From contig JBBCGK010000001.1 of assembly GCA_037200965.1 (NCBI GenBank), forward strand, positions 608,001-672,000: a stretch of DNA of 64,000 nt, written 5' to 3'. Origin of the DNA: a bacterium (GTDB taxonomy: Bacteria > Patescibacteriota > Minisyncoccia > Phycocordibacterales > Phycocordibacteraceae). This document shows positions 25,505-57,072 of the stretch, one piece after another. Within the stretch, counting starts at the first letter, position 1. Each line of letters starts with the position of its first letter. The notes under the pieces were generated by a model, which worked only from the letters and a program-made list of their open reading frames with translations, did no database searches and was not told the origin of the DNA. A program made the position numbers and the translations under genes.

Positions 25505-25690
25505 AGAAACTATACTTAGACCTATTTAATTCTCGCCCAAGTGACTTTGCTAACAGTGACCTGCCGGACAGTTATATCCGAGCGATAGAAATCGTTAAGC
25601 AAGAGGGTTACGAAAAGCTGATTGAAGAATACCAGTCCTTCGTGTAGTAGTTCCGAGGTTGTCCGTAAGGTCGCGACCCTCCCATCTGTT

Positions 25691-25770
25691 TCACAAATAT
25701 GCCCGAATCTTCCCCGCATTCCCCTCGAAATCCATTTTGTCCCCTTCCGCTTGGCCTGGGAATATCCAGA
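25691..25770 (-). pseudogene. 3'-terminal fragment (26 codons) of a HIT gene
   Basis: ~93% DNA identity to 32203-32275; translates IWIFPGQAEGDKMDFEGNAGKIRAYL* versus VWIFPGQAEGDKMDFEGNAERIRARL*. Confidence 0.7.
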
Positions 25771-25775
25771 TATTC

Positions 25776-32081: not shown

Positions 32082-32202
32082 TTTCAGCCTGTCCCTTCTT
32101 GAGAACCCACGTTCTTCTGCTGCTATGCGGTGGAGAACGGAGGGTTCTTCTTTTCGTTTTGGGTTCCGACAGCGCCTGCAGGCTCGCTGAGCTTTACTGG
32201 TT

Positions 32203-32559
32203 CTACAAACGCGCCCGAATCCTCTCCGCATTCCCCTCGAAATCCATTTTGTCCCCTTCCGCTTGGCCCGGGAATATCCAGACATGGGCATGCGCCACTT
32301 CCTCGCCGACGCTCTTCGAGATAATCCAATCGGTATTGAAAGCCTTTTGCTGCGCTCTCGCGACTTTCCGGACAACTTCGAAATAGCGGCCGATGTCGGG
32401 AACGTCCCATATCCAGCGGTAGTGCTGTTTCGGTATGACCTGCACGTGGCCTGGCGTTTCCGGATGGATATCGATAAACGCGAGGAAGAAATCGTCCTCA
32501 TATACCTTGTATGAAGGAATCTCGCCCCGGACGAGCTTGCAGAACACGCAGTCTTCCAT
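32203..32559 (-). CDS. HIT-family hydrolase (paralogue B)
   Basis: HAHVWIFP histidine triad; start MEDCVFCKLV at 32559 (the 176-aa ORF is over-extended). Confidence 0.7.
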   Translation of the reverse strand: MEDCVFCKLVRGEIPSYKVYEDDFFLAFIDIHPETPGHVQVIPKQHYRWIWDVPDIGRYFEVVRKVARAQQKAFNTDWIISKSVGEEVAHAHVWIFPGQAEGDKMDFEGNAERIRARL

Positions 32560-38984: not shown

Positions 38985-39931
38985 CGCACTAACATATCGA
39001 ACACTCTTGCAGTCGAGCATACGGCGTCTTGAGCTCGATGCCAAGGTGCGGCCGTTCGTGGTTGTATTCGCGCAGAAAGGCCTGATACTGGGCATTGAGG
39101 TCCTCCATTGAAGCGGGCTTTTTCATGAAGCGCCAGAAGAACTCCTCCTCGTCGGTGCGGAATGACCGCTCGATGACCGCGTTCTCATTCGGGTTCGCCT
39201 TGTGGATGAAATGATGCTTCCAGCCGAGTTCCCCAGTCACGAAGGCGCGGAAGCGGCTCTGGAACTCAAGGCCGTTGTCGGTCTGCACGAAATCCGGTAC
39301 GAACGGCAGCGAAACCGTCCGCAGGGCCTCGATGGAGAAGTCCTGCACGAGCTCGGGGAAGATGACGCCAGCTTTGTATCGGCTCCAAATATCAATGACG
39401 GCATACAGATACAGGGTATGCGGGAGCCCCGACAGCTCGGGCGTCACGTACTTCACATCCATCTGAAGCTTCCCGGGCGCGGTCACGTTCTTGAGATACA
39501 TATGCGTGGTCTCCTGATATCTCGGCCGTCGGTATGACGCGCCTTCCAGTATATGACCTTTCGCTTTGAGGAAGCGATGGATGGTCGCCGGGTGCTCGGA
39601 GAGGCCGAGCAGCACTTTGAGCTTGCGCGCCCCGTATCCTTTCTCTTCGCGCAGGCGCAAGAGCGCCTCAGCCCGCTCTCCCGAGAGCGTCCTGCGGCGA
39701 AGACGCTTCGGTCTTGTCGACTTGCGGACAAGCTGCCGCGTCGAGAGCGCAAACCGGCTCCGGATGCTCCGGGCTCGCTTCTTCCAGAACACCACCGTGC
39801 CCGGAGATATGCCGAGTGTCCGTGCGGTTTCGCGCACCTTTCCTCCCGACTTCTTCAATTTCCTGATGATTTCCCTGGGTTCTTTGCGCATATCCTCCTT
39901 AGTATTAGGGAGTGTTCGATATGCAGTGCGA
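38985..39931 (-). mobile_element. IS481-family insertion sequence
   Basis: Imperfect terminal IRs tcgcactaacatatcgaacactc (38985-) and gggagtgttcgatatgcagtgcga (-39931); single tpase ORF 38989..39891. Confidence 0.75.
38989..39891 (-). CDS. IS481-family DDE transposase
   Basis: N-terminal HTH plus rve integrase core (DNG...E). Confidence 0.8.
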   Translation of the reverse strand: MRKEPREIIRKLKKSGGKVRETARTLGISPGTVVFWKKRARSIRSRFALSTRQLVRKSTRPKRLRRRTLSGERAEALLRLREEKGYGARKLKVLLGLSEHPATIHRFLKAKGHILEGASYRRPRYQETTHMYLKNVTAPGKLQMDVKYVTPELSGLPHTLYLYAVIDIWSRYKAGVIFPELVQDFSIEALRTVSLPFVPDFVQTDNGLEFQSRFRAFVTGELGWKHHFIHKANPNENAVIERSFRTDEEEFFWRFMKKPASMEDLNAQYQAFLREYNHERPHLGIELKTPYARLQECSIC

Positions 39932-43230: not shown

Positions 43231-44318
43231 TCAAGAATATATCGCAACACCCGTATCCCTCCAGAATACTTCCTCGGGCGTCAGCCCGCCATGGCGCTTG
43301 CGTGGTCGGGTATTGATGAGGCGTTCCGCTCGAGCAAGCTCCTCGTCAGAGACCAAACTCCAGTCGGTCTTCTTTGGGAAAAATCGACGGGCTAGACCAT
43401 TCGCGTTCTCGTTTGAGCCGCGCTCGCACGAGCTGTATGGATGGGCGAAGAATATATCCATGTCGAGTGCTTCTTTGACTTCTTCCCACCGCACGTTCTC
43501 CGTACCGCGGTCTCGCGTGAGCGTCTTGCGCACGCGCTTTGGAAGAGCGGAGAGCCGTTTGATGAGTGCCTCGTCGCAGACAACGGCCGTACCATCCTTG
43601 GCCTTCTCAAAGAAGGTCACACCGCTCCTGCGCTCGGTCATACTTTTGACACGGTCGGTTGATTGCCTCGACACCATGGTGTCGTCTTCCCAGTCACCGA
43701 TGCGGGAGCGTTCGTTCACCACCTCGGGACGCGCTTCGATTGAGGGCAACGCCTCATTCCGTGCCATTCTGCGGGCTTTCCTGAAGCCCTGCTTCGCACG
43801 CGCCTTGTGGCGACGTGCCAAATGCGGCCGCAGATCGGTCTCTCCGGGCTTCACCGATCCTCGGCCCTTGCGATGTATCCTGCGGTATACCTCCTGGTAT
43901 ACCGCTTCGGTTGAGATGCGCATGGAAGGGTCGTCGGGGTATTCAAGTGGCAGTCGTATATGCACTTGCTCGGGAGACCATTTCTTTTCCCGCATCTTCT
44001 CCTCGACGTACGCTTTGAGTGTTGGGGTACGCTTCATTTTTGGCGTGTTGCCTCGCTTGCCAATGCGTTCTTGCGCTTTTGCGTGTGCCGCTTCAGCTCG
44101 ATACCGCCCCATCCCTTTGCGCGGTTTCCCCGCAAGCTCGCGGGAGACCGAGCTCTTGTTGCGGCCGAGTTCCGTGGCCATGTCCGTGACGCTCTTTGCG
44201 TCCTTGCGCCATCTGACTTCGATGATGCTTCGTTCGCGGAGCGTGAACGGTCCCTTGTTTTGTGCCATATCCAATTAGCCTAGTCTGCTAATTGGGTGTT
44301 GCAATTAATTCTGGAACT
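43229..44318 (-). mobile_element. IS30-family insertion sequence (copy 1)
   Basis: Tpase 43231..44274; terminal IRs gggtgttgcgatatattctt (left, minus) and gggtgttgcaattaattctgg (right), 17/21 matches. Confidence 0.75.
43231..44274 (-). CDS. IS30-family DDE transposase
   Basis: N-terminal HTH; DDE domain with ...RPRKRHGGLTPEEVF C-terminus. Confidence 0.8.
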   Translation of the reverse strand: MDMAQNKGPFTLRERSIIEVRWRKDAKSVTDMATELGRNKSSVSRELAGKPRKGMGRYRAEAAHAKAQERIGKRGNTPKMKRTPTLKAYVEEKMREKKWSPEQVHIRLPLEYPDDPSMRISTEAVYQEVYRRIHRKGRGSVKPGETDLRPHLARRHKARAKQGFRKARRMARNEALPSIEARPEVVNERSRIGDWEDDTMVSRQSTDRVKSMTERRSGVTFFEKAKDGTAVVCDEALIKRLSALPKRVRKTLTRDRGTENVRWEEVKEALDMDIFFAHPYSSCERGSNENANGLARRFFPKKTDWSLVSDEELARAERLINTRPRKRHGGLTPEEVFWRDTGVAIYS

Positions 44319-44690: not shown

Positions 44691-47311
44691 TCTTGAAGGT
44701 ACGGGAACCGTACCTAGTGGACCTCATCTCCAAGCTAAGATACGATCCCGAGAATACGCGCAGCAAACGTAAAAGCTTCTGCCAAATCGCTTTTAGCCAA
44801 AATACGAATTGACGGAAGGCGGTATCGTCAAACGCCCCATAAACGGACGCGGTTTGCGTTTGACGAACCACGTTCGCAGTTCCTGCACGTTCCTGTCTTT
44901 GAATCGGCGTATTTTCGATTGGCATTGATTTTATTTCTTGGGCAACGAGCGCAACTTCTTTGCGCGCTGGATTGACCACCGGACTTCCGGGAATAAGCGA
45001 AATCGCTGTTGTCGCCGTCGCGTGGGAAGCGGCACTTTCGGAAGAACGCCTGCCAACATCCGATACGGAAGACGTCGTAGTCGGCTGAAGCGAATTAGCG
45101 GAATATGGTACTGCCTCACCAAGCCGCGGAGTGATCTCGATATCGACCATGCCGTCGCCGTCTTCGTCAACTATAAGCGCGCTGGCGTGTCTCAGGTCAC
45201 CCGCAACTTTCATTGATGCTCTCGTGCGCTCGCGTACAGGCACCCCGTATATCGTGCTTGATGCGATAACACGGTCTCCTTCCTGTTCCTCAAGATCGAC
45301 CGAGAATGTTCCGGAACCGGTACCGCGAAGTTCGATTTCATAGTTCCGGCCCGCGGGGACGATACTATACTTGACCTCTCCGAATTCCCCGTACGTCGAA
45401 CCCGGAATATCCTCCCGTATCCTGCCGTCGTCGGTAAGGCCGGTGCGGCGTCCGCGCCCATCGGATACTTCGAGCGCGAGCGGGGAATGCAGAAAGAAGA
45501 GGAGTTTCTTCGCGGTCGGGAGTACGGGTTCGGTCGTGACGATCGAAGCCGGTGTTTCTTCGGTATTTGTAAGGATGCTCTCGATGAAAGCGCGCACGTC
45601 CGGATGCTCGAAGATGGTTCCGTGGTCGCTGTCGCTTCCTGCGAGATCTATCCAGTATTTCCTTGCTCCCGTATCCATCATGAGCGCGCTTATGCTCGGC
45701 ACGACGCCGTCGCCTCTGGGGGTGAAGAGCGGACGATATTCGCGAAGCGCGGGAGTTTCGGCACCGATAGGCCCGGCGAACGTGCGGGGGAGCGTATAGA
45801 AGTCGATACCGGAGACCGTTGAATCGACGCCGAAGCCCGCGAGCTCGTAGACGGCCGTGCCCGCGGGCGGCTGCCATGCGTCGATCGAGTCGTGCGTGGC
45901 GGAAGCATAGGCAAGAAGCGATTCGTTCGCATTATTCGCGGAGAGAAATTCCGCGAGTTCGTCTTCGCGGTTGAGAATTTCTCCATACGCATCTTCTTCC
46001 GCCGCATACGCCTCTCCTTCGAACTGTCCTACGGGGAGATCGGAGTCGCTAAAGTACGCCTCCGAAGGCAGGAGGTGGTATGCCATCGGCGCGTTCTGCG
46101 CGAATTCGCGCGCCGCGTCGGCGGAGACCACCGGAACGATGCCGTTAAGCGCCGCGATGCCCTGGTTGAGCCCGTAGAGGAGCGCGCCGACCGCTCCCGG
46201 CGCGCCGCTTTGCGGTACCCCGACAAGAATGACCTTGTCGATAAGCCGGGCGGTTTCCTCGCCTCCGAGCTTTTCCATGAGCGCTTTCGCGACCAGGCCG
46301 CCGTTGCTGTGCGCGATGACCGTCACCCGTCCGCTCTTTGATGTCGCCGCAAGCGAATGAAGCGTCTGTTCTATATACGGGGTGCTCGTCGCTTCTTCAT
46401 AGAAGATCATTCCGTCGCGCAGGGTGCCGTGTTCGATAATGTCCGGAAGCGACAGGCGCCAGTCGTAGGCGGCAGCTTTCCAGTCGCGTATCGTTCCCGC
46501 GCTTTTGAGCGCATCCATTTCATCCATGAAAGAGGCGTAGAAACGGTTGCCGTCGGCTTCGTCGATAACATCGCTTTCTTTGGCGTACAGATCGCTCCGC
46601 GCACTCTTTCCCGCGCCGTTAAGCGACAAGCTTTTCATCCGCTCGTTACCGATCCCGCCGAGAATATCGGCGATCGAATCGTTTTCCCCGATCGACCGGT
46701 TCCCAAAGCTTTCCTTCGGGTCCGTAGAGACGGCTGCCCTCGATGCCGGGAAGGAACAAGACATTCGATACTCCCGGCAGGGGAGGAGGCTCGGGGGTAT
46801 CCGGCTGCTTCACGGCTATCGCGGTGCTTGTCGCGGTTGCCATATACCCGGCCTCGTCCTCGACTGTCACCACCGCAACGACTGCCGCCGCATCCGGGCC
46901 AAGCGCGGGAATATTCATGGGTATGTTCTCAAGCGCTACGACGCCCTCTTCCGCAAACGCGCCCGTCATGGAATGAACCTGGCTCGCGATCGGTCCGTGA
47001 TACGCGCCGCTCCGGTCTATCGCGTACTGATAAATGATTGCGGACTTGAACGGAGAGAAAGTATCGTGCGCGAATCCTGCCAACATCGCACCCCACACGA
47101 TGCCGGGCTCTATCTCGCGGCCGTTCGTCGTATGGAAGTCGGTCAAAGTGACGGATATATCCGGCGTGGAAGTTGCGGCTGCCTCGACAGAGATTGCTTC
47201 AAGGGACAGGCTATCGGGCGAAGTGGCTTCCTCGGCATGCGCGGTAGCCGCAAAACCGCAAAGGAACAGCATGACTGACGCATATAACAGACCGCGCAAG
47301 AACATTCGCAT
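44632..47311 (-). pseudogene. secreted LCAT/PGAP1-like alpha/beta-hydrolase (lipase) gene with a frameshift at a T4C4 run (~46684-46691)
   Basis: N-terminal signal peptide plus VLFLPGIEGSRLY in ORF 46646..47311. GHSNGG nucleophile elbow (IAHSNGG) and APYDWR-like motif in ORF 44632..46764. The two frames join if one G is dropped in the minus-strand GGGGAAAA run. Confidence 0.55.
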
Positions 47312-47439
47312 AGGCGAACGCTAGCAGGGAGCGAATAAGATTTTCTTAAAAGCCCGTGCGGACGAGCGGCCAAGACCGACACCGCATTATCTGTTCTTGA
47401 ACTCAATGGCGTACGATAAGCACACACGTAATCAATCGT

Positions 47440-47913
47440 ATGGGTGTTTTATCTCGATACAAGAAAATGTTGGCTGACGCAGGTGTTTTCTATAAAAAGA
47501 TAGGCAAGATCGTGTGCCCATATTTCGGGCATGAAATACCTTTCAATTCTGACGGTTTCCATCACCTCCAGTTTTCTGCCGACCGGGAACGAGATAAGAA
47601 AGAACAGATGCTGAAGTTCAGTTTGCTCCCCGCAGCACCACGCATCTTGAAAAACTCGGGTACCGTACAGGAACATCGAAAGACAATGGAAATCGAGAAC
47701 ATCGGTCGTTATTCAAAGAATGGCAAGCGAATGGTCGAGGTTGAGTATTGGGGTTTCGTTGCGATTGTCGGTGCCAGGGATCCGTTGCGCATAAAAGTGA
47801 TAGTACGGCGTGTCGGCACGGGACAGGTTCATTTCTGGAGTATTATGCCCGCGCAGCGCATGGGCGAAGACGCGTATCTCAAGGTCGGCAGCAAGGACAT
47901 GCAAGACGGCTAA
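47440..47913 (+). CDS. hypothetical protein
   Basis: 157-aa ORF followed by a strong terminator. Confidence 0.4.
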   Translation: MGVLSRYKKMLADAGVFYKKIGKIVCPYFGHEIPFNSDGFHHLQFSADRERDKKEQMLKFSLLPAAPRILKNSGTVQEHRKTMEIENIGRYSKNGKRMVEVEYWGFVAIVGARDPLRIKVIVRRVGTGQVHFWSIMPAQRMGEDAYLKVGSKDMQDG

Positions 47914-47923
47914 AGGCACATCA

Positions 47924-47952
47924 AAAAGCCCCGCATATGCGGGGCTTTTTGA
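47924..47952 (+). terminator. rho-independent terminator
   Basis: aaaagccccgcatatgcggggcttttt. Confidence 0.65.
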
Positions 47953-48151
47953 TGTGCCTGCCTTCAGCTTACGTATTTTAGCTGAACGGGCCTTGCGGCC
48001 ACAGGCACGGGGCGATTATACCCCAGCAGCATGAAGTTCCCAAGTAAGGTGTGAATTGCTCATAGTACGTAGGTTGCCTGCGGTGGTATTGCGTTTATGC
48101 GCCCTCTCTTATATAGTCTCCTTGACCCGCTTGCGGGTCGTATTTTCGTAA

Positions 48152-48559
48152 ATGTCTACCATAAACCAGCTCGCGAAGAAGCGCCGCAAGGATAAGACGA
48201 GGAAGACCACGGTCCTCGCTCTTGGCCGCGGCTTTAACGCGCTCGAGAACCGCCCGACCTACTATTCCTCGCCCTTCAAGCGCGGCGTTTGCACCAAGGT
48301 GACCACGAAAACTCCAAGGAAGCCGAACTCGGCCGTCCGCAAGATCGCGCGCGTGAGGCTCACGAACGGCATGGAGGTCACCGCGTATATCCCCGGAGAA
48401 GGGCACAACCTCCAGGAGCACTCGGTGGTGCTGCTTCGCGGCGGCCGCGTGAAGGACATCGGCGTCCAGTACACGATCGTGCGCGGCAAGCTCGACACCG
48501 CGGGCCTCGAGAAGCGCCGCCGCTCGCGCTCCCGCTACGGCGCGAAGAAGCCTAAATAA
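48152..48559 (+). CDS. rpsL: 30S ribosomal protein S12
   Basis: PNSA, ...[13 protein letters not shown]..., RGG..DLPGV-like motifs. Confidence 0.9.
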
Positions 48560-48564
48560 TTTCC

Positions 48565-49029
48565 ATGCGACGTCCTCTTAAAAAGAAGCGAACCTGGCGC
48601 CCCGACCTCAAGTACGGATCGGAAGGCCTTGAGCGTTTCGTAAACGCGGTCATGTGGGACGGAAAGAAAGATACCGCCCGCGCGGTCGTCTACGGCGCGC
48701 TTGAGAAGGTAAAGGAGAGCGGCGCAGACCCGCTTGAGACGTTCGAAGCGGCTATCAGGAACGTCTCTCCTCTTATGGAAGTCCGCTCCCGCCGCGTCGG
48801 CGGCGCGAACTATCAGGTGCCGCGCGAGGTTCCCCAGCAGCGCCGTCTCGCGCTTTCCTATCGCTGGATTATCGGCGCTGCCCGCTCGAAGAAGGGCAAG
48901 CCGATGGCCGAGAAGCTCGCCGAGCAGCTCGTCCTCGCCGCAAAGAACGAAGGCGACGCCATCAAGAAGAAGGATGACATGCACCGCATGGCGGAGTCGA
49001 ACAAGGCATTCGCGCACTTCGCGTGGTAG
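48565..49029 (+). CDS. rpsG: 30S ribosomal protein S7
   Basis: Conserved S7 core. Confidence 0.9.
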   Translation: MRRPLKKKRTWRPDLKYGSEGLERFVNAVMWDGKKDTARAVVYGALEKVKESGADPLETFEAAIRNVSPLMEVRSRRVGGANYQVPREVPQQRRLALSYRWIIGAARSKKGKPMAEKLAEQLVLAAKNEGDAIKKKDDMHRMAESNKAFAHFAW

Positions 49030-49047
49030 TCATTTCATAGTATCCGA

Positions 49048-49088
49048 AACACAAAAGACGGCCGCGCTACGGCCGTCTTTTGTGTTTG
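49048..49088. terminator. strong hairpin terminator directly after rpsG (also serves the convergent minus-strand gene)
   Basis: acaaaagacggccg-cgcta-cggccgtcttttgt. Confidence 0.6.
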
Positions 49089-49151
49089 CGGCGGTGAATA
49101 CAAAGCAAAGGGTACGGTCCTGAGACCGCACCCTTTCACTCACCCCTTCTC

Positions 49152-49661
49152 TTATCCGGACCGAACGAGCTGCTGTAGCACCCGCACCTGGTCTCCTTCG
49201 TACCGGGCTGCTGCCCGAAGAGTTTCGGCCGTTTTCATCCATTCCCCGATTGCGGTGTGTATGCCGGATCCGATAACCGCTCTCAGAGTACCTGGAAGGT
49301 CGTTCTTGGCCATATCGCCGCCCGGGAGGGAATCGAAGAAAGCGTCCCAAGAGAGCCTTGCGAGACAACCGTATCCGTCTATTTTTGGGGGCGGCTTCGG
49401 GCCAACCAAATACACGCGGACGAACCCGCCTTTGACGGTGACTGGTTTCCCGTCCTTGCGTTCAAGCGAGCCGGGAACGGGAGCGTCGAGCGCCGTAAGA
49501 ATTTCATAACCCGGCGGCATATCGAATGTGACGGCCGCGATTGCTTCGAGGAATGCGCGTTCGTTTCCGTCCGGGTGACGGGCGATAGCTTCGACCGGAA
49601 TGCAATGACCGGACAATTCCTCCAAGTGCGAGAAAGCGGCGATAGAGCTGATGATGCGCAT
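49152..49661 (-). CDS. hypothetical protein (cargo of the rpsG-fusA insertion)
   Basis: 169-aa ORF. Confidence 0.4.
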   Translation of the reverse strand: MRIISSIAAFSHLEELSGHCIPVEAIARHPDGNERAFLEAIAAVTFDMPPGYEILTALDAPVPGSLERKDGKPVTVKGGFVRVYLVGPKPPPKIDGYGCLARLSWDAFFDSLPGGDMAKNDLPGTLRAVIGSGIHTAIGEWMKTAETLRAAARYEGDQVRVLQQLVRSG

Positions 49662-49759
49662 GATTTCCTCCTTGCGCTAGAACGGATTTACGGAATCGAA
49701 TCCGGAAGCACCATAGCATGGCCGTCCGGTTTTTACCCTAAGCAGCCGGATTGCCGCAA

Positions 49760-50837
49760 CTTGCACAAGTTCAGATACATATGGCACTCCTCCTAACTGA
49801 GGAGCGATGCGTCAATTCAACATACTGAAGGATACCGAGGGCTGGTTGTATATGCGCGAGCGGAGCATACGCTTCCTGCATATGAGGAACAACGACGAGG
49901 TGCGGCATCGGGTCAAGGTGCTGGACTTCTGGAAAACGCACGGGGAGCGTGCGGCCAGGGACGCCTTCAGCGTCTCTCGCCGCACGCTCTTCCGTTGGCA
50001 GGCGAAGCTCGACCGCGCGCACGGGAGACTCGACGCGCTCGATCCCAAGTCGACGGCACCGAAGAATCGGAGGAGACGCATCGTCCTCCCCGAGGTCGAG
50101 ACGTTCATCCTGAAGGAGCGCGCGGAGCATCCGAGGCTCGGCAAGGCGAAGCTCGCAGCCCTGCTGCGGGAGGACGGGTACCGGGTATCCGAATCGTATG
50201 TCGGGAGGGTCGTCGCGGACCTCAAGAGGAGAGGGCTGCTGCTCCCGCACAAGCCGCTCTCATACTATGCGCGAAGCGGCACGTATCGGGAGAAGCCCGT
50301 ATCGAAGCGCACGAAGCTGCGCAGGCGGCACAAGCGGGGCATGGAGCTCGACACCGTCGTCCGCTTCATCGACGGCGTGAAGCGGTACGTCCTGACCGCC
50401 ATCGATGTCGAGAAGAAGTTCGCCTTCGCCGGCGCGTATACCGTCCACTCCTCCGCGTCCGCCGCCGATTTCCTCGCGCGCGTCATCGCGGTGTGCCCCT
50501 TCGACATCACGGAGCTCCAGACCGACAACGGCCCGGAGTTCGCCAAGAACTTCGAGGCGGGGTGCCGCGCCCTCGGCCTCACCCACTTCAATACGTTTCC
50601 CCGCAGCCCGAAGATGAACGCGTTCGTCGAGCGGTTCAACCGGACGATCTCGGAGGACTGCATCATGCTCAATCGGCCGCTCCTGCGGGACGACGTCGCG
50701 GCATTCAACCTGAAGCTGGTCGACTGGCTGCTCTGGTACAACGCCCGGCGTCCGCACGAGTCCCTGGGACAGGTGCCGCCGCTCCGGTATATACTCTCCT
50801 CATTAACGGCCGAGGAGTGCCAGAGGTACTGGACGCG
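49760..50837 (+). mobile_element. IS481-family element (copy 2); right end truncated/overlain by IS30 copy 2
   Basis: Tpase ORF 49807..; its reading frame runs into the IS30 terminal repeat at ~50836. Confidence 0.6.
49807..50835 (+). CDS. IS481-family DDE transposase (C-terminus fused into IS30 sequence in the ORF track)
   Basis: HTH plus rve core: TDNGPEF, RPHESLG. Confidence 0.75.
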
Positions 50838-51875
50838 TACGCCTGAACCCCACTCTAACTGCAACACTCACTTCCTCAGAAATATCGAGCGCGGTGATTC
50901 GAATTTCAGACGCTTGCGCGGCCGGTCATTGAGCTTCTTCACCACATGCGCCAGCTCCTCAGGGGTGATCAGGTTGAAGTTGAGCGAACGAGGAAAGTAC
51001 TGACGCAGGAGTCCGTTGGTATTCTCGTTGGTACCACGCTCCCAAGGACGGTGCGGGTATGCGAAGTACACGGTTGCCCCGCTCTTCTTCCCGAGTCGCT
51101 TCCAGTCGGCAAATTCTGGACCGTTGTCGAGCGTGATGGTCTTGCGTTTGGCACGCGGAATATGACGGAAGCGTGCGAGCGCAAGCGACGTGAGGAGCTC
51201 GGCGCGCATCTTGGGCAACAAGTATGCAACCAGGTATCCGCTCCTGCGATCCACAAAGGTGACAATGCGGACTCGCTTGTCGCTGCCTTGCACCGTATCG
51301 CCCTCCCAGTCGCCGAGCCGGCTTCGTCGTTCAATAATCGTTGGACGGTCATCAATACGCTGCTTCTTGGCCGCTTCACGAGCCTTCTCGCGTATTTTGG
51401 TACCGCGCCTGCGACGGTATTTGCCTTTGGATGATCTGAGGAACTGCTTCAGGTGCGGAGCACGCTCCTCAATATATCGGTATATGGTGCTGGCGGAGAC
51501 TGCACCCGTCACCCCTTCAATTTGCTCAGGAGAGTGGTGGTCTTTGAGCATACGCACCACCGTGCGCAAGAGCGCACCCTTGAGCACGCGAATACTGTCC
51601 ATTGCAGCAATGCGTTTCAGCTTCTTCTTTCTGCGTACTTCGCGTACATCATATCCCTCACGTCCGCCGTATTCGTTCACATGACGAGAGATCGATCCTG
51701 CATCCTTCTCAAGCGTACGTGCGATCTCTCGGATCGCGTGTCCTGCCCGCAGCATGCGGGCAATCACCGGCCAGTCTCCTGGCCCAATCTGGGTATGTGC
51801 CATATCCAGAGAGTGTGGAACCCAAAAGAGCTGTTGCAATTAGCCTGCAAACTTTGTTGCGATTAGGGTGGGGAT
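50838..51875 (-). mobile_element. IS30-family insertion sequence (copy 2, a different IS30 member)
   Basis: Tpase 50868..51839; IRs gtgttgcagttagagtgg (left, minus) and gttgcgattagggtgg (right). Confidence 0.7.
50868..51839 (-). CDS. IS30-family DDE transposase
   Basis: DDE domain, ...LNDRPRKRLKFESP C-terminus. Confidence 0.8.
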   Translation of the reverse strand: MQQLFWVPHSLDMAHTQIGPGDWPVIARMLRAGHAIREIARTLEKDAGSISRHVNEYGGREGYDVREVRRKKKLKRIAAMDSIRVLKGALLRTVVRMLKDHHSPEQIEGVTGAVSASTIYRYIEERAPHLKQFLRSSKGKYRRRRGTKIREKAREAAKKQRIDDRPTIIERRSRLGDWEGDTVQGSDKRVRIVTFVDRRSGYLVAYLLPKMRAELLTSLALARFRHIPRAKRKTITLDNGPEFADWKRLGKKSGATVYFAYPHRPWERGTNENTNGLLRQYFPRSLNFNLITPEELAHVVKKLNDRPRKRLKFESPRSIFLRK

Positions 51876-51962
51876 TCACCTACACAACTTTGACAGACCT
51901 TTGTCTATAGGTTATTATATCCATGGATTCCCGAGTGGCGGGACAGACAAAGGGAGACGTGC

Positions 51963-52391
51963 ATGAACAATCCTGAATTCCGCGAACTCGCGCAGGAAAT
52001 CGATCTGTTTTTGTATTCGGCTGACGGCGAGCGCATCACCGACTATCTGAAGTTCCATGAGAAGCGTATCGTCCTGTTCCGCTCCACGGACTTGGGCGTA
52101 TACCGCTGCTACGGCCTCATGTATGCGGGCTTCGCCTGCTGGGCGGATGCCGACGTCGAGCCCGACGCTGACCCGGCGCTTCGTTCGCTTGACGCTGAGT
52201 CATTCGTCGCGCGCTGGTTCAAGGAAACGGGCGACAACTCCGCCGCGTCGCTCGTCGAAGCGATCAGGCAGGGTTATAGGCGGTTGTGCGAAGAGGATGA
52301 AAACCCCCCGCTCACTGGCCTTGTCCTCGGAATTATCGTTTTCCTCGCCGTTTTCATCTTCCTTGGACTCAAGATCACGGGTCATCTCTGA
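51963..52391 (+). CDS. hypothetical protein with C-terminal TM anchor
   Basis: 142 aa, C-terminal LVLGIIVFLAVFIFLGL. Confidence 0.35.
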   Translation: MNNPEFRELAQEIDLFLYSADGERITDYLKFHEKRIVLFRSTDLGVYRCYGLMYAGFACWADADVEPDADPALRSLDAESFVARWFKETGDNSAASLVEAIRQGYRRLCEEDENPPLTGLVLGIIVFLAVFIFLGLKITGHL

Positions 52392-52549
52392 CGGCCCGTT
52401 CGCAAGAACCGGTACAACACTTGGGCGCGGGCCCGGACCACAAATCCGGGCCTTTGCTTTTCCTAGAAAACCCGCTACTCTATGGATAACGCCTCGGCGC
52501 TTTTATTTTTACCGCTTCCAGACACAACACATCCCTTACGTACTAGTAT

Positions 52550-54697
52550 ATGAACCGCGACTACCCGCTTGAGAAAGTCAGGAACTTCGGAATCATCGCC
52601 CATATCGACGCCGGAAAGACCACCACGTCCGAGCGCATTTTGTATTACACCGGTTCCCAGCACAAAATCGGCGAGGTGCACGACGGAGAGACCACGACCG
52701 ACTGGATGGAGCAGGAGCGGGAGCGCGGCATCACCATCACGGCCGCCGCCATCACCTCCTTCTGGACCCGCACCAGCGAGCCGGACAAGAAGGACGTTTC
52801 GAAAAAGTTCCGCTTCAACATCATCGACACGCCGGGACACATCGACTTCACGGTCGAGGTGAAGCGGTCCATGCGCGTCCTTGACGGCGCGGTCGTCGTT
52901 TTCGACGGCGTCGCGGGCGTCGAGCCGCAGTCGGAGACCAACTGGCGCTATGCGGACGAGGCCAATGTGCCGCGCCTCTGTTTCATCAACAAGCTCGATC
53001 GCACGGGCGCATCGTTCGAGTTCTCCTATAAGAGCATTCTCGACCGCCTCTCGAAGAAGGCCGTGCGCATGCAGATCCCGGTGGGAGAGGAAGACCAGCA
53101 CGAAGGCGTCATCGACCTCCTTTCCATGAAGGCTTTCACCTTCACGGGCAACATGGGCGACATCGTGACCGAGGGAGAGATCCCGGCGAACCTCCTTGAG
53201 GACGCGAAGAAATACCGCGCAGAGCTCATCGAGCGGATCGTCGAGCACGACGAGGCGGCGATGAGCGCGTATCTTGAGGGCAGGGAGCCCGAAGTGGCGG
53301 AGCTTAAGACGATTCTCCGCAAGGCCGTGATCGCGAACGCGATCTTCCCGGTCTTCACCGGTTCCGCGCTCAAGAACAAGGGCGTGCAGCTCGTGCTTGA
53401 CGCCGTCGTCGACTATCTCCCGTCGCCTCTCGACATGCCGCCCGTCAAAGGCATCAACCCGAAGACCGGCGAGGAGGTCGTCCGCAGGGCTTCCGACGAC
53501 GAGCCGTTCACCGCGCTTGCCTTCAAGCTCCAGACCGATCCGTTCGTCGGTGCCCTTACGTTCTTCCGCGTCTATGCGGGAACTTTGACCGCAGGCTCGT
53601 ACGTATACAACTCGACGACCGGCAGCAAGGAGCGCGTCGGCCGCATCGTGCGGCTTCAGGCTGATAAGCGCGAGGAAGTGGAGAAGGTGTTCGCGGGAGA
53701 GATCGCGGCGGCCGTAGGTCTCAAGGACACGAAGACTGCGCACACGCTCTGCGACGAGGCGAATCCGATCATCCTCGAGACTATCAAGTTCCCGGAGCCG
53801 GTGGTATCGCTTCGCATCGAGCCGAAAACCAAGGCCGACCAGGAGAAAATGGGCATGGCGCTCAAGAAGCTCTCCGACGAGGACCCGACCTTCCGCGTCA
53901 CCTCGGACGCCGAAACCATGGAGACCATCATCTCGGGGATGGGCGAGCTGCATCTCGAGATTCTGGTCGACCGCATGCAGCGGGAGTTCAACGTGGGCGC
54001 GAATGTCGGGAAGCCGCAGGTGGCATACCGCGAGACGGTGCTCGGCGCGTCCGATGCCGAAGGCAAGTACATCAAGCAGACCGGCGGCAAGGGCCAGTAC
54101 GGGCATGTGAAGATCAAGATGAAGCACCTCGAGCCTTTGGACCCTGAAGCGAAGATTCCGAAGAACGTCACGCGCGAAGCCAATTTCGAATTCATCAACA
54201 ACATCAAAGGCGGCGTGGTGCCGGCTGAGTTCATCGCTCCCGTCGAGAAGGGTATCCGCGAGTCGATGGCGCGCGGCATTCTCGCGGGCTTCCCGGTCGT
54301 CGACATCTCCGTCGACCTCTACGACGGTTCGTACCACGACGTGGACTCCTCGGAAATCGCCTTCAAGATCGCGGCATCGATGGCCTTCAAGGAAGCCGCG
54401 ACCCGCGCGAAGCCGGTGATTCTCGAGCCGATCATGAAAGTGGAGGTGGTGGTGCCGGAGAAGTTCATGGGCGACATCACGGGGAACCTCTCCGGGAAGC
54501 GCGCTTCGATCGAAGGCATGGAAGAGCGCGGCATGAACAAGGCGGTGCACGCCAAGGTGCCGCTCTCCGAGATGTTCGGGTATACGACGACGCTGCGCTC
54601 CATGACCGAGGGCCGCGGCTCCATGACCATGGAATTCGACCACTACGAAGTCGTGCCCCAAAACGTCGCGCAGGACATCATCGCGAGCAGGAAGTAG
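52550..54697 (+). CDS. fusA: elongation factor G
   Basis: G1-G5 GTPase motifs ([18 protein letters not shown]), domains II-V. Confidence 0.95.
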
Positions 54698-54715
54698 CTT
54701 CCTGAGTATCAGGCA

Positions 54716-54748
54716 AAACCCCGGCGTGCTGTGCACGCCGGGGTTTTG
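54716..54748 (+). terminator. rho-independent terminator after fusA
   Basis: aaaaccccggcgtgc-tgt-gcacgccggggtttt. Confidence 0.6.
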
Positions 54749-54936
54749 CTCATCTTTCCGCTTCTTGCAATCTTCAGGGCGTTCGGTTACATTCAACATA
54801 ACGCAGGCCTGCGGCTTTTTGCTGTTTCAGCGGGAAGTCGCGCCGCGGCAATTATCCGATTCGCGTCTTGCGCCTTGGTCGCCTGCCCTTCGCAGGCAGG
54901 CGCGCGCGGTAACAGTTCCGATAACTTTACAATCAT

Positions 54937-56139
<1,203 letters not shown>

Positions 56140-56162
56140 GGTTCCAATCGGTTCGAAAAAGA

Positions 56163-56190
56163 AAAGCCCCGGCCTTGGCCGGGGCTTTTC
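56163..56190 (+). terminator. rho-independent terminator after tuf
   Basis: aaaagccccggcc-ttgg-ccggggctttt. Confidence 0.6.
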
Positions 56191-56236
56191 TACTTGCGCT
56201 TTTAGCGGCCATGGTGCATACTCGCGGATACGTTCT

Positions 56237-56617
56237 ATGACAGCAGCGACGATCACTCCGAAGCCCAAGCGCGCCTCGAAAAAGGCGGCTGATGTCGCTG
56301 TACCTCCTGCCGAAGCGAAGCTCCGCATCCGCATCAAGGCCTACGAGCACAAGATCCTCGACCTTTCCGTAAAGCAGATCATGGATACCGCGGCACGTTT
56401 CGACGCGAAGGTCGTGGGCCCGGTGCCGCTCCCGACCGAGATCAAGCGCTGGACGGTAAACCGTTCGACATTCGTCCATAAGGACGCGCGCGAGCAGTTC
56501 GAGATGCGCATCCATAAGCGTCTTATCGACATTCTCTCCCCGAATCCGAAAGTGATCGAAGCGCTGACGAATCTCAATCTTCCGTCGGGCGTCACGATCG
56601 ACGTGAAGATGGTGTAG
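56237..56617 (+). CDS. rpsJ: 30S ribosomal protein S10 (with ~23-aa N-terminal extension)
   Basis: LRIRIKAYEHKILD... S10 core. Confidence 0.85.
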   Translation: MTAATITPKPKRASKKAADVAVPPAEAKLRIRIKAYEHKILDLSVKQIMDTAARFDAKVVGPVPLPTEIKRWTVNRSTFVHKDAREQFEMRIHKRLIDILSPNPKVIEALTNLNLPSGVTIDVKMV

Positions 56618-56640
56618 CCGTATTTTAAAAGGAATGAAGA

Positions 56641-56668
56641 AAACCGCCGGTAGGCGGTTTCCTTTTTT
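56641..56668 (+). terminator. rho-independent terminator after rpsJ (unusual inside an S10 operon)
   Basis: aaaccgcc-ggta-ggcggttt then cctttttt. Confidence 0.55.
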
Positions 56669-56724
56669 GTGCTGAAGGCAGGGCCTGTGCTAGGCTTTGA
56701 CGGGACAACTGTGAAGGTAGATCT

Positions 56725-56898
56725 ATGGGTCAAATGAAACGTTTGTGGGGAAAGTTGCAGACTGAAGGCAGGCAACCTCCCAAGGCCGGAAAGACGTCTG
56801 ATCAACTCGGTCTTCACCTTGATGAAGAGGCTCCGGTTGCTCACGACGGGAAGCCGGGCCGGCTCTTCTATCTGGATAAGCCAGAAAATGGAGAGTGA
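56725..56898 (+). CDS. 57-aa ORF between rpsJ and rplC
   Basis: MGQMKRLWGKLQTEGRQPPKAGK...; flanked by hairpins at 56641-56668 and 56923-56950; no clear SD. Confidence 0.2.
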   Translation: MGQMKRLWGKLQTEGRQPPKAGKTSDQLGLHLDEEAPVAHDGKPGRLFYLDKPENGE

Positions 56899-57072
56899 GC
56901 TTCCGGCGCTACACACCTAACAAAGGCCGCGGGCGAAAGCCCGCGGCCTTGGAGTTTGCATCTTTCGGAGCCTTCGTGTAGAGTGCCCCTATCGCTACGA
57001 ACGGTGCCCTTGGCCGGTCCAATGGCAATTCGCGCTGCTGCGATTGCTGCTAGCGCGTTTTGCTTTAGCCAC

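Follow-up and report, generated by a model that had tools for sequence, protein, structure and literature searches.

The window analysed in this study is a 64-kb stretch of DNA within a 960-kb contig, which comes from a Kaiserbacteria-like member of the Paceibacteria (Patescibacteria). The classical str gene order, rpsL-rpsG-fusA-tuf, is retained in the window, and the gap between rpsG and fusA measures 3520 bp, made up of 2128 bp of insertion sequence (IS) DNA with duplications and about 1392 bp of older sequence. All the elements described in this gap by the first-pass annotation are present. The features of the locus are as follows.

48152-48559, plus strand: rpsL (Pfam S12)
48565-49029, plus strand: rpsG (Pfam Ribosomal_S7, 5e-55), with a 5-bp spacer to rpsL
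49047-49087, both strands: terminator-like hairpin 3' of rpsG, with perfect 18-bp arms and a 5-nt loop
49107-49136, minus strand: terminator-like hairpin of orf169 (-27.9 kcal/mol, z = -4.8)
49152-49661, minus strand: orf169, 169-aa ORFan; Shine-Dalgarno site AGGAGG
49757-49761: left CAACT, the 5-bp target-site duplication of the IS481-like element
49762-50839, plus strand: main part of the IS481-like element (IRL TGCACAAGTTCAGATACATATGGCACTCCT; transposase start at 49807)
49807-51003, plus strand: IS481-like transposase ORF as found (rve, rve_3, HTH_32), running on into IS30
50840-51880, minus strand: IS30-family element of 1041 bp, with flanking TA at 50838-50839 and 51881-51882
50868-51803, minus strand: IS30-family transposase, 311 aa (NCBIfam IS30)
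51883-51884, then 51885-51889, plus strand: terminal CA of the IS481-like element, then the right CAACT
51890-51918, plus strand: promoter-like site of orf142 (TTGACA, 17-nt spacer, TATTAT; 11 of 12 consensus positions)
51963-52391, plus strand: orf142, 142-aa ORFan; its GC distribution over codon positions resembles that of coding sequence
52429-52453, plus strand: terminator-like hairpin 3' of orf142 (z = -2.5)
52453-52510, plus strand: fusA-proximal module, shared across the lineage
52550-54697, plus strand: fusA (EF-G; Pfam)
about 54713-54749: strong terminator-like hairpin 3' of fusA (-38.6 kcal/mol, z = -6.8)
about 54766-54830: promoter-like box, GC dyad, and T-run 5' of tuf, resembling the fusA module
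54937-56139, plus strand: tuf (EF-Tu; Pfam)

Neither orf169 nor orf142 has a match in Pfam, NCBIfam, PHROGs, or PADLOC, and no homologues were found among 5.8 billion proteins, where orf169 retrieved only itself. In an exhaustive HMMER search, residues 5-70 of orf169 gave short and weak matches to WD40 proteins only, and they resemble single WD40 repeats. A hydrophobic C-terminal helix is present in orf142. Single-sequence AlphaFold models of the two proteins had mean pLDDT values of 36 and 45, the orf142 model (AF2) being of low confidence.

Nested insertion sequences between rpsG and fusA

The genome has more than one copy of each IS element. No second copy of either was found within the 64-kb window, and their boundaries were derived from loci outside it. 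Other copies show that the IS481-like element is 1080 bp long in all (49762-50839 plus 51883-51884), and the copy in the window is 100% identical to copies L087 and L172 of the same genome. Its ends are inverted repeats of about 30 bp that begin with TGC/TGT, and 5-bp duplications are present in the four copies on long contigs, reading CATCC (L087), GCTGC (L172), and CGGGC (L091) outside the window. Members of the IS481 family in ISfinder have a single ORF with an rve-type DDE domain, TG...CA tips, a duplication of 4-15 bp, and a length of about 1-1.3 kb. The element described here resembles them in its transposase, which is encoded by one ORF and combines an rve-type DDE domain with an N-terminal HTH, its 1080-bp length, its TG...CA tips, its 5-bp duplication, and an ORF that runs through the right inverted repeat. 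It differs from them in several respects. The best NCBIfam match of its transposase is IS481 (NF033577) with 169.3 bits, under the cutoff of 224 (the next is IS3 with 87.7 bits); its ORF lacks a stop codon, and the uninterrupted transposase ends at the TGA within the adjoining target TTGACA; and it is found immediately adjoining sigma-70-type promoters, in a single orientation. The cluster of the Kaiserbacteria transposase P0050 was contaminated with IF-3 proteins and uninformative.

The bounds of the 1041-bp IS30 element, which has TA on both sides, were set by comparing three copies; elsewhere, one copy in L085 is 100% identical in another context and another is present in L172. Its transposase scores 230.3 bits against NF033563 (cutoff 80). 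Elements of the IS30 family (ISfinder) measure about 1-1.25 kb, with terminal inverted repeats of 20-30 bp and a target duplication of 2-3 bp. The element in the window is nothing unusual among them, with a single DDE transposase, a length of about 1.04 kb, imperfect terminal repeats of about 25 bp (one gap in their alignment), and a 2-bp duplication. Its site of insertion is the terminal inverted repeat of a second IS, and this recalls the targeting of inverted repeats known for IS30.

The nesting reported in the first-pass annotation, of IS30 in the end of IS481, was borne out. The insertion point of IS30 is 2 bp inside the right tip of the IS481-like element; the insertion severs the terminal CA and adds 51 codons to the transposase. 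When IS30 is removed in silico, the ...GCGTACA terminus and the CAACT duplication are restored, together with a transposase of 347 aa, which ends in YWTRTQL before the stop and equals that of an intact copy in length. The IS481-like copy in the window was probably immobilised by the IS30 insertion, as judged from the sequence.

A gap holding repeated IS copies could also be an artefact of assembly, in which a chimeric join at these copies creates a false linkage of rpsG and fusA. Such an error might be suspected from the multicopy nature of both elements, from at least one homopolymer indel in the window relative to another assembly, and from contig L085 of another assembly, in which IS30 runs into a different flank; the last indicates strain heterogeneity or additional IS30 copies. 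The internal IS481/IS30 junction is seen in the 960-kb contig of the window only. However, the rpsG-orf169-IS481 junction is found at 100% identity in the short-read contigs of two other datasets, as is the IS30-orf142-fusA junction, so that orf169 adjoins rpsG, and orf142 adjoins fusA, in three assemblies each. These short-read contigs end exactly k (141) or k-1 (30) bases into the repeats, the breaks in the IS481-like element being 141 nt and 30 nt inward from 49762. Moreover, to the right of IS30 stand the final bases of the IS481-like element and then CAACT, which matches the duplication on the orf169 side; therefore, the two flanks were contiguous before the insertion. The check for misassembly advised at the outset thus leaves an artefact very unlikely, with scarcely any weight to be given to it.

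The str junctions in related genomes

In the first-pass annotation, the near-universal contiguity of rpsG and fusA was considered to be broken in this genome. In a comparison set of 80 related loci, no homologue of either transposase was found, and yet the rpsG-fusA gap, measured in 69 Paceibacteria genomes, is 522 bp long at the median and 4.4 kb at most, exceeding 1 kb in 19 and 3 kb in six of them. The fusA-tuf gap, measured in 47 genomes, has a median of 1171 bp and exceeds 1 kb in 24. Two other junctions remain tight: the median spacer between rpsL and rpsG is 16 bp (80 relatives), and that between tuf and rpsJ is 30 bp. Unrelated genes occupy both junctions; the 192 ORFs in the gaps fall into 155 clusters, which include cell-wall hydrolases, HepT/MNT and SocA toxin-antitoxin parts, pilin-like proteins, CofD, and GcpE. 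Relatives are therefore largely split in the same way without IS elements, as the first-pass annotation had allowed for, but not by the same genes, since the inserted genes vary from genome to genome.

Terminator-like hairpins are similarly distributed over the lineage. Within 110 nt downstream they occur in none of 80 loci for rpsL, in 44 of 80 for rpsG, and in 33 of 57 for fusA, and in one of 186 control windows inside fusA. The strong hairpin noted directly 3' of rpsG in the window was confirmed as a perfect inverted repeat (-37.6 kcal/mol, z = -8.05), which is followed by TTTTGTGTTT and has T-runs on both strands. As a stable GC-rich hairpin with a T-run, it has the characters of an intrinsic (Rho-independent) terminator, and a bidirectional terminator role is predicted for it.

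The module upstream of fusA consists of a -35-like TTTGCT(T) at 52453-52459, into which the T-tract of the orf142 hairpin extends, a -10-like TACTCT at 52476-52481, a GC dyad TAACGCCTCGGCGC at 52487-52500, and a T-run TTTTATTTTT at 52501-52510. A GC-rich dyad with a T-run is present 5' of fusA in 63 of 70 sequences, whatever the length of the gap, and most of the 63 also have -35/-10-like boxes, as judged by eye on aligned sequences. This set was gathered by T-run-anchored extraction, while a scan for hairpins mostly caught upstream terminators and missed the small dyad. The window departs from its relatives, since its -10-like box is one base off the usual TATTCT and 47 nt separate the T-run from the fusA ATG, compared to 16-22 nt in most of them. 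The region upstream of fusA scores low against the consensus sigma-70 promoter, and the TTGCTT / TATTCT-like motif becomes visible only by comparing relatives. As an RNA hairpin, the GC dyad found no support: RNAalifold gave no pairs, the three core pairs hardly vary and show almost no covariation, and the fold (z = +0.86) is no more stable than shuffled sequences. It is therefore described as a sequence motif only. When 47000-57000 was scanned against Rfam with a permissive threshold, the matches were at chance level only, and none lay near 52454-52549.

The interpretation first put forward was that a co-transcribed rpsL-rpsG-fusA-tuf operon had recently been broken by mobile elements, and that fusA and tuf rely on a new or IS-derived promoter in 52392-52549. 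The two insertion sequences do exist and account for 2.1 kb of the gap, and the strong terminator 3' of rpsG would also agree with such an event. However, what remains after subtraction of both IS elements is about 1.4 kb that still contains two genes and three terminator-like hairpins, and in relatives free of these elements long gaps and a terminator 3' of rpsG are routine. Since the sequence at 52453-52510 is common to most relatives, it is neither new nor IS-derived. A recent break of the operon thus appears largely refuted on comparative grounds and is highly improbable; the observation of the first-pass annotation stands, and its interpretation only in part. Given that a split junction is routine in the lineage and that fusA retains a conserved promoter-like element, the split is ordinary in these organisms and older than the IS elements.

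A history of the locus, which is considered likely, can be described as follows. The str genes appear to form three transcription units, rpsL-rpsG, fusA, and tuf with the S10 genes, and both junctions serve as permissive slots, filled by different accessory genes in each genome. Before the arrival of the IS elements, the slot between rpsG and fusA held the divergent ORFans orf169 and orf142 in about 1.4 kb. The 1080-bp IS481-like element then entered their divergent promoter region, with its duplication against the -35 TTGACA of orf142, and the 1041-bp IS30-family element entered it subsequently, 2 bp from its right tip. The anatomy of the locus, the order of the two insertions, and the conservation across relatives are shown by the sequences themselves; from sequence we infer the promoter and terminator functions, as well as the transcriptional independence of the units. 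Both insertions leave untouched the promoter-like site of orf142 and the fusA-proximal module, which lies downstream of the orf142 terminator; therefore, the expression of fusA and tuf is expected to be unaffected.

In E. coli and Salmonella, the str operon has the same gene order and is likewise followed directly by the S10 genes, whereas here terminator-like hairpins and promoter-like boxes split rpsG from fusA and fusA from tuf, and variable genes are found at both junctions across the Paceibacteria. In Gammaproteobacteria, multigene insertions between the operons of the rpoBC-str-S10 supercluster are described in passages of one study, and the same passages hold no mention of insertions inside str (PMC6735719). 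Since the rpsG-fusA split is normal in the lineage and nested IS elements are common, the finding as first noted changes little. It is rather the Paceibacteria str cluster as a whole that seems to consist of three transcription units, with two junctions accumulating highly variable accessory genes, and operon assumptions from model bacteria, or inference from gene neighbourhood, should not be applied to Paceibacteria genomes.

The IS481-like family and its flanking -35 hexamers

In the window, the -35 box of orf142 directly adjoins the CAACT of the IS481-like element. Unexpectedly, the same arrangement, with the 5-bp duplication directly against TTGACA, is found in 14 verified copies of the family and in 58 of 78 distinct flanks. 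The family, which is widespread, appears to choose sigma-70-type promoters as its integration site, in one orientation, with the duplication against TTGACA and the TGA stop borrowed from it. We regard this reading as having somewhat better than an even chance of being correct.

Alternatively, TTGACA could be an outward -35 box carried by the element, or its frequency could be an effect of survivorship; either would create hybrid promoters. Many IS elements do carry outward -35 boxes (10.1101/2022.12.17.520857), and matching 5-mers on both sides were found in only 11 of 67 short-read metagenome contigs. However, a 5-mer that is duplicated stands between the tip of the element and TTGACA in all four long-contig copies and at 10 metagenome loci, and the hexamer is therefore outside the element. 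Two 100% identical copies part directly after TTGACAGA, and the left flanks are without a motif. Survivorship alone cannot account for the single-base phasing. Taken together, a carried box or survivorship is unlikely.

If the family does choose its target, the transposase may read TTGACA directly, or promoter-bound RNA polymerase or a sigma factor may recruit it, and promoters may offer a safe haven in streamlined genomes with little spare intergenic DNA. A safe-haven rationale has been discussed for the ISAba32 subgroup of the IS1202 family, which targets XerCD sites; its DDE transposases are distantly related to those of IS481 and IS3, and it also inserts in one orientation against a short site bound by host proteins (10.1101/2022.12.17.520857). 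Its target is the XerC/D recombination site and not a -35 box, and the transposase family and the hosts are different. Base-pair-precise placement relative to expression signals, by which gene disruption is avoided, is a further likeness to Ty3, which integrates at Pol III start sites, and to IS900/IS901-type elements, which insert between the RBS and the start codon. These enzymes are unrelated to the present one and recognise another signal, and for the IS481-like family a role of RNA polymerase or sigma factor is simply one possibility.

In a literature search, no description of a promoter-targeting IS481-type element was found. If the choice of target is true, a bacterial DNA transposon would be reading a core promoter element at single-base precision, and each insertion would mark a -35 box, which could be used for promoter annotation in uncultivated bacteria. 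Transposon biology would likewise have an interest in it, and a tool for site-directed insertion might be derived from it. Copies of the family are present in genomes of the Kaiserbacteria-like type and on many metagenome contigs, of which several come from groundwater.

Nested insertion sequences between rpsG and fusA

Every feature that the first-pass annotation placed between rpsG and fusA is present. The str cluster (rpsL-rpsG-fusA-tuf) and its rpsG-fusA gap are organized as follows.

48152-48559, rpsL
48565-49029, rpsG
49047-49087, perfect 18-bp inverted repeat 3' of rpsG, with T-runs on both strands
49107-49136, terminator-like hairpin belonging to orf169
49152-49661, minus strand, orf169 (hypothetical gene, 169 aa)
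49762-50839 and 51883-51884, IS481-like element (1080 bp)
49807-51003, IS481-like transposase ORF, with rve, rve_3, and HTH_32 domains
50868-51803, minus strand, IS30-family transposase (NCBIfam IS30 model, 230 bits against a cutoff of 80)
51963-52391, orf142 (hypothetical gene, 142 aa)
52550-54697, fusA
54937-56139, tuf
56237, start of rpsJ

IS DNA and duplications make up 2128 bp of the 3520-bp gap, and ~1392 bp is older DNA. The hairpin at 49047-49087 folds at -37.6 kcal/mol (z = -8.05 against shuffles).

Two further IS481-like copies of the same genome (in L087 and L172), each also 1080 bp, match the window at 100% identity from 49762 to 50840. An IS30 copy in a different context, L085 (contig JAATEX010000074.1 of GCA_015655515.1), shows 100% identity over 50840 to 51880, and the left boundary of IS30 at 50840 is fixed by a further copy in L172. 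TA is found on both sides of IS30. When IS30 and one TA are taken out, the sequence reads ...GACGCGTACA, the same terminus as that of the intact IS481-like copies, and the CAACT that follows equals the CAACT immediately left of 49762. The transposase rebuilt in this way has 347 aa and the C-terminus TRTQL*; that of an intact copy (P0001) also has 347 aa and ends in TRTHP*. Since removal of IS30 restores the terminus, the duplication, and the full-length transposase, the suspected nesting of IS30 inside the IS481-like end is real. The reconstructed sequence indicates that the IS481-like element inserted first, with a 5-bp duplication, and IS30 later, 2 bp from its right tip.

The restored end and duplication mean that DNA on the orf169 side adjoined DNA on the orf142 side before the insertion, which is a strong argument against a chimeric join at the IS copies, the assembly error considered at first pass. 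The identical S7 protein is encoded on the 960,259-bp contig JBBCBH010010897.1 (GCA_037975565.1), which includes the window sequence. Two other contigs encode it as well, one of 6.8 kb in GCA_015655515.1 and one from Logan for SRR28211700. The two short-read contigs with rpsG and orf169 reach 141 nt and 30 nt into the IS481-like element before ending, and the matching contigs with orf142 and fusA begin 141 nt and 30 nt inside IS30; both outer junctions are reproduced at 100% identity in the GCA_015655515.1 and SRR28211700 contigs. De Bruijn assemblers are expected to break contigs in this way where a repeat begins. The contigs confirm both outer junctions. L085 runs unbroken from the IS30 end across the whole element into a different flank, with a 451-aa gene and a ThiF-like fragment, which implies either further copies of IS30 or heterogeneity between strains at the IS481/IS30 junction. 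Compared with an independent assembly (L082), the window has one additional C in a C-run at ~46686, so that an 892-aa LCAT-like (PF02450) gene is broken into ORFs of 668 aa and 221 aa. The extra base reflects either a homopolymer error from long-read assembly or a genuine frameshift; otherwise the two assemblies differ by 6 SNPs over 6.8 kb.

Both orf169 and orf142 are ORFans, with no homologue among 5.8 billion proteins. A good Shine-Dalgarno site precedes the former, whose N-terminal 70 residues show likeness to single WD40 repeats. The latter has a near-consensus predicted promoter, a Shine-Dalgarno site, a coding-like GC content by codon position, and a hydrophobic C-terminal helix. The AlphaFold models of both were too poor in quality for use.

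Variable gene slots in the str cluster

The genomes closest to this one belong to Patescibacteria and bear the labels Paceibacterota, Kaiserbacteria, or Minisyncoccia. S12, S7, EF-G, EF-Tu, and S10 were located in 80 related loci.

Spacers between neighbouring genes in the related loci
rpsL-rpsG: n = 80, median 16 bp, maximum 142 bp
rpsG-fusA: n = 69, median 522 bp, 19 above 1 kb, 6 above 3 kb, maximum 4376 bp
fusA-tuf: n = 47, median 1171 bp, 24 above 1 kb, maximum 5940 bp
tuf-rpsJ: n = 37, median 30 bp, maximum 472 bp

The gaps hold 192 ORFs of at least 60 aa in 155 sequence clusters, 138 of them in the direction of the cluster. Their Pfam families include peptidoglycan-binding and hydrolase domains, HepT/MNT and SocA toxin-antitoxin parts, pilin-like N-termini, CofD, GcpE, and others. 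No homologue of either transposase, orf169, or orf142 was found in the 80 loci. Relatives thus carry other genes between rpsG and fusA without these IS elements. The first-pass annotation had named the same unrelated genes in related genomes as counting against its claim of an operon broken by IS, and this is largely what is seen, except that the genes vary between genomes. With the wide rpsG-fusA spacing of the 69 relatives, that claim very probably falls, and the split as first described is ordinary for the lineage. Judged from these loci, the rpsG-fusA and fusA-tuf junctions are variable gene slots throughout the lineage, one of two points worth following.

A 157-aa protein upstream of rpsL (47440-47913), with a weak LPD3 Pfam match and unusually low GC (0.49), has a homologue of 44% identity in the rpsG-fusA slot of another genome (L025, 10507-10980); therefore the same accessory gene family occurs in different slots around the cluster.

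Terminator-like hairpins and the region upstream of fusA

Hairpins with a perfect stem and a T-rich tail, at most 110 nt downstream of the gene, were counted 3' of rpsG in 44 of 80 genomes and 3' of fusA in 33 of 57, but 3' of rpsL in none of 80; control windows inside fusA had one in 1 of 186. Upstream of fusA, 63 of 70 sequences contain a GC-rich dyad, typically (T)AACGCCnnGGCGC, followed by the T-run TTTTATTTTT, with the ATG 16-22 nt further on. In most of these regions there is also an upstream terminator hairpin, then a -35-like TTTGCTTTTT, a ~17-nt spacer, and a -10-like box (TATTGT, TATTCT, or TATCTT) ~6 nt 5' of the dyad, the boxes being judged by eye on aligned sequences and uncounted. 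The module is independent of gap size, being the same at 100 bp or 4 kb. In the window, where it lies at 52429-52510 (boxes to T-run, 52453-52510), the -10-like box is TACTCT and the ATG is 47 nt from the T-run, farther than in most relatives.

The earlier proposal that the insertion forced a new promoter on fusA does not agree with a dyad and T-run that precede fusA whatever the gap length. We infer that the fusA promoter is probably lineage-conserved, not new, and that there would be separate transcription units for rpsL-rpsG, for fusA, and for tuf with the S10 genes.

The dyad is conserved in sequence; however, its folding as an RNA hairpin was not supported, and no Rfam match covers it. 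In the window, rpsL (48040-48151), fusA (52453-52510), and tuf (54766-54830) are preceded by a shared layout of a -35-like TTGC-type box, a 17-nt spacer, a -10-like TAxxxT, ~5 nt, a short GC dyad, and a T-rich run.

Placement of the IS481-like family

In all four long-contig copies (window, L087, L172, and L091 of another Kaiserbacteria chromosome, with 71% protein identity), TTGACA or TTGACG directly follows the right-hand 5-bp duplication, which is CAACT, CATCC, GCTGC, and CGGGC, respectively. In the window this duplication abuts the promoter-like TTGACA-17-TATTAT (51890-51918) 5' of orf142. The transposase has no stop codon within the element, and its stop is the TGA of the adjoining TTGACA. 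The C-termini of 120 transposase homologues are mostly WTRT plus two variable residues; in the listed C-termini, read by eye, none of K, E, Q, M, and W occurs at the last position, which fits a codon ending in T and then the stop.

A metagenome scan returned 80 loci with 78 distinct right flanks. Of these flanks, 40 have exactly TTGACA at positions +6 to +11, and 58 have it with at most one mismatch. G-rich positions at +26/+27 and TAnnnT at +29 to +34 also stand out in the position matrix. In 58 of 70 flanks the spacer before TAnnnT is 16-18 nt long, and other spacings account for 0-7. Left flanks of these loci show no motif. A co-oriented ORF, starting a median of 52 nt past the -10 box, is found in 27 of 32 long right flanks, and the downstream ORFs are mutually unrelated (33 ORFs in 32 clusters). 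The same 5-mer occurs on both sides in 10-11 of 67 short-read contigs, far above chance; the others probably join flanks from different copies of a multicopy element.

We conclude that insertions of this family lie immediately upstream of predicted sigma-70-type promoters, in register to the single base. The transposase may itself read TTGACA, or promoter-bound polymerase may guide it. No description of such placement was found in the literature searched; the nearest analogue found was the ISAba32 group of IS1202, which abuts XerCD sites (10.1101/2022.12.17.520857). This family is the second point worth following.

IRR-N5-IRL junctions beside IS481-like copies (L091 left flank, 515-556; metagenome loci L117 and L141) point to tandem copies, circle junctions, or an insertion next to a solo end. 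Outside the window, L172 contains a CRISPR-array-like region (2848-3315; source contig ~701.6-702.1 kb) of seven exact 40-bp repeats (GTAACGGTACTCTGGTCCGTCGAGATGAGGGGGATGCTAC) with a 71-bp period, ~310 bp downstream of another IS481-like copy and its abutting promoter-like site; an additional IS30 copy adjoins rplU nearby. Within the window, an 86-nt direct repeat (25688-25773 and 32200-32285) has 90% identity over a distance of 6.5 kb, and the Pfam table lists two mobile-element-like proteins on the minus strand, one IS3-like of 300 aa with HTH_Tnp_1 and rve_3 (38989-39891) and one of 345 aa with a weak HTH_38 match (43231-44268).
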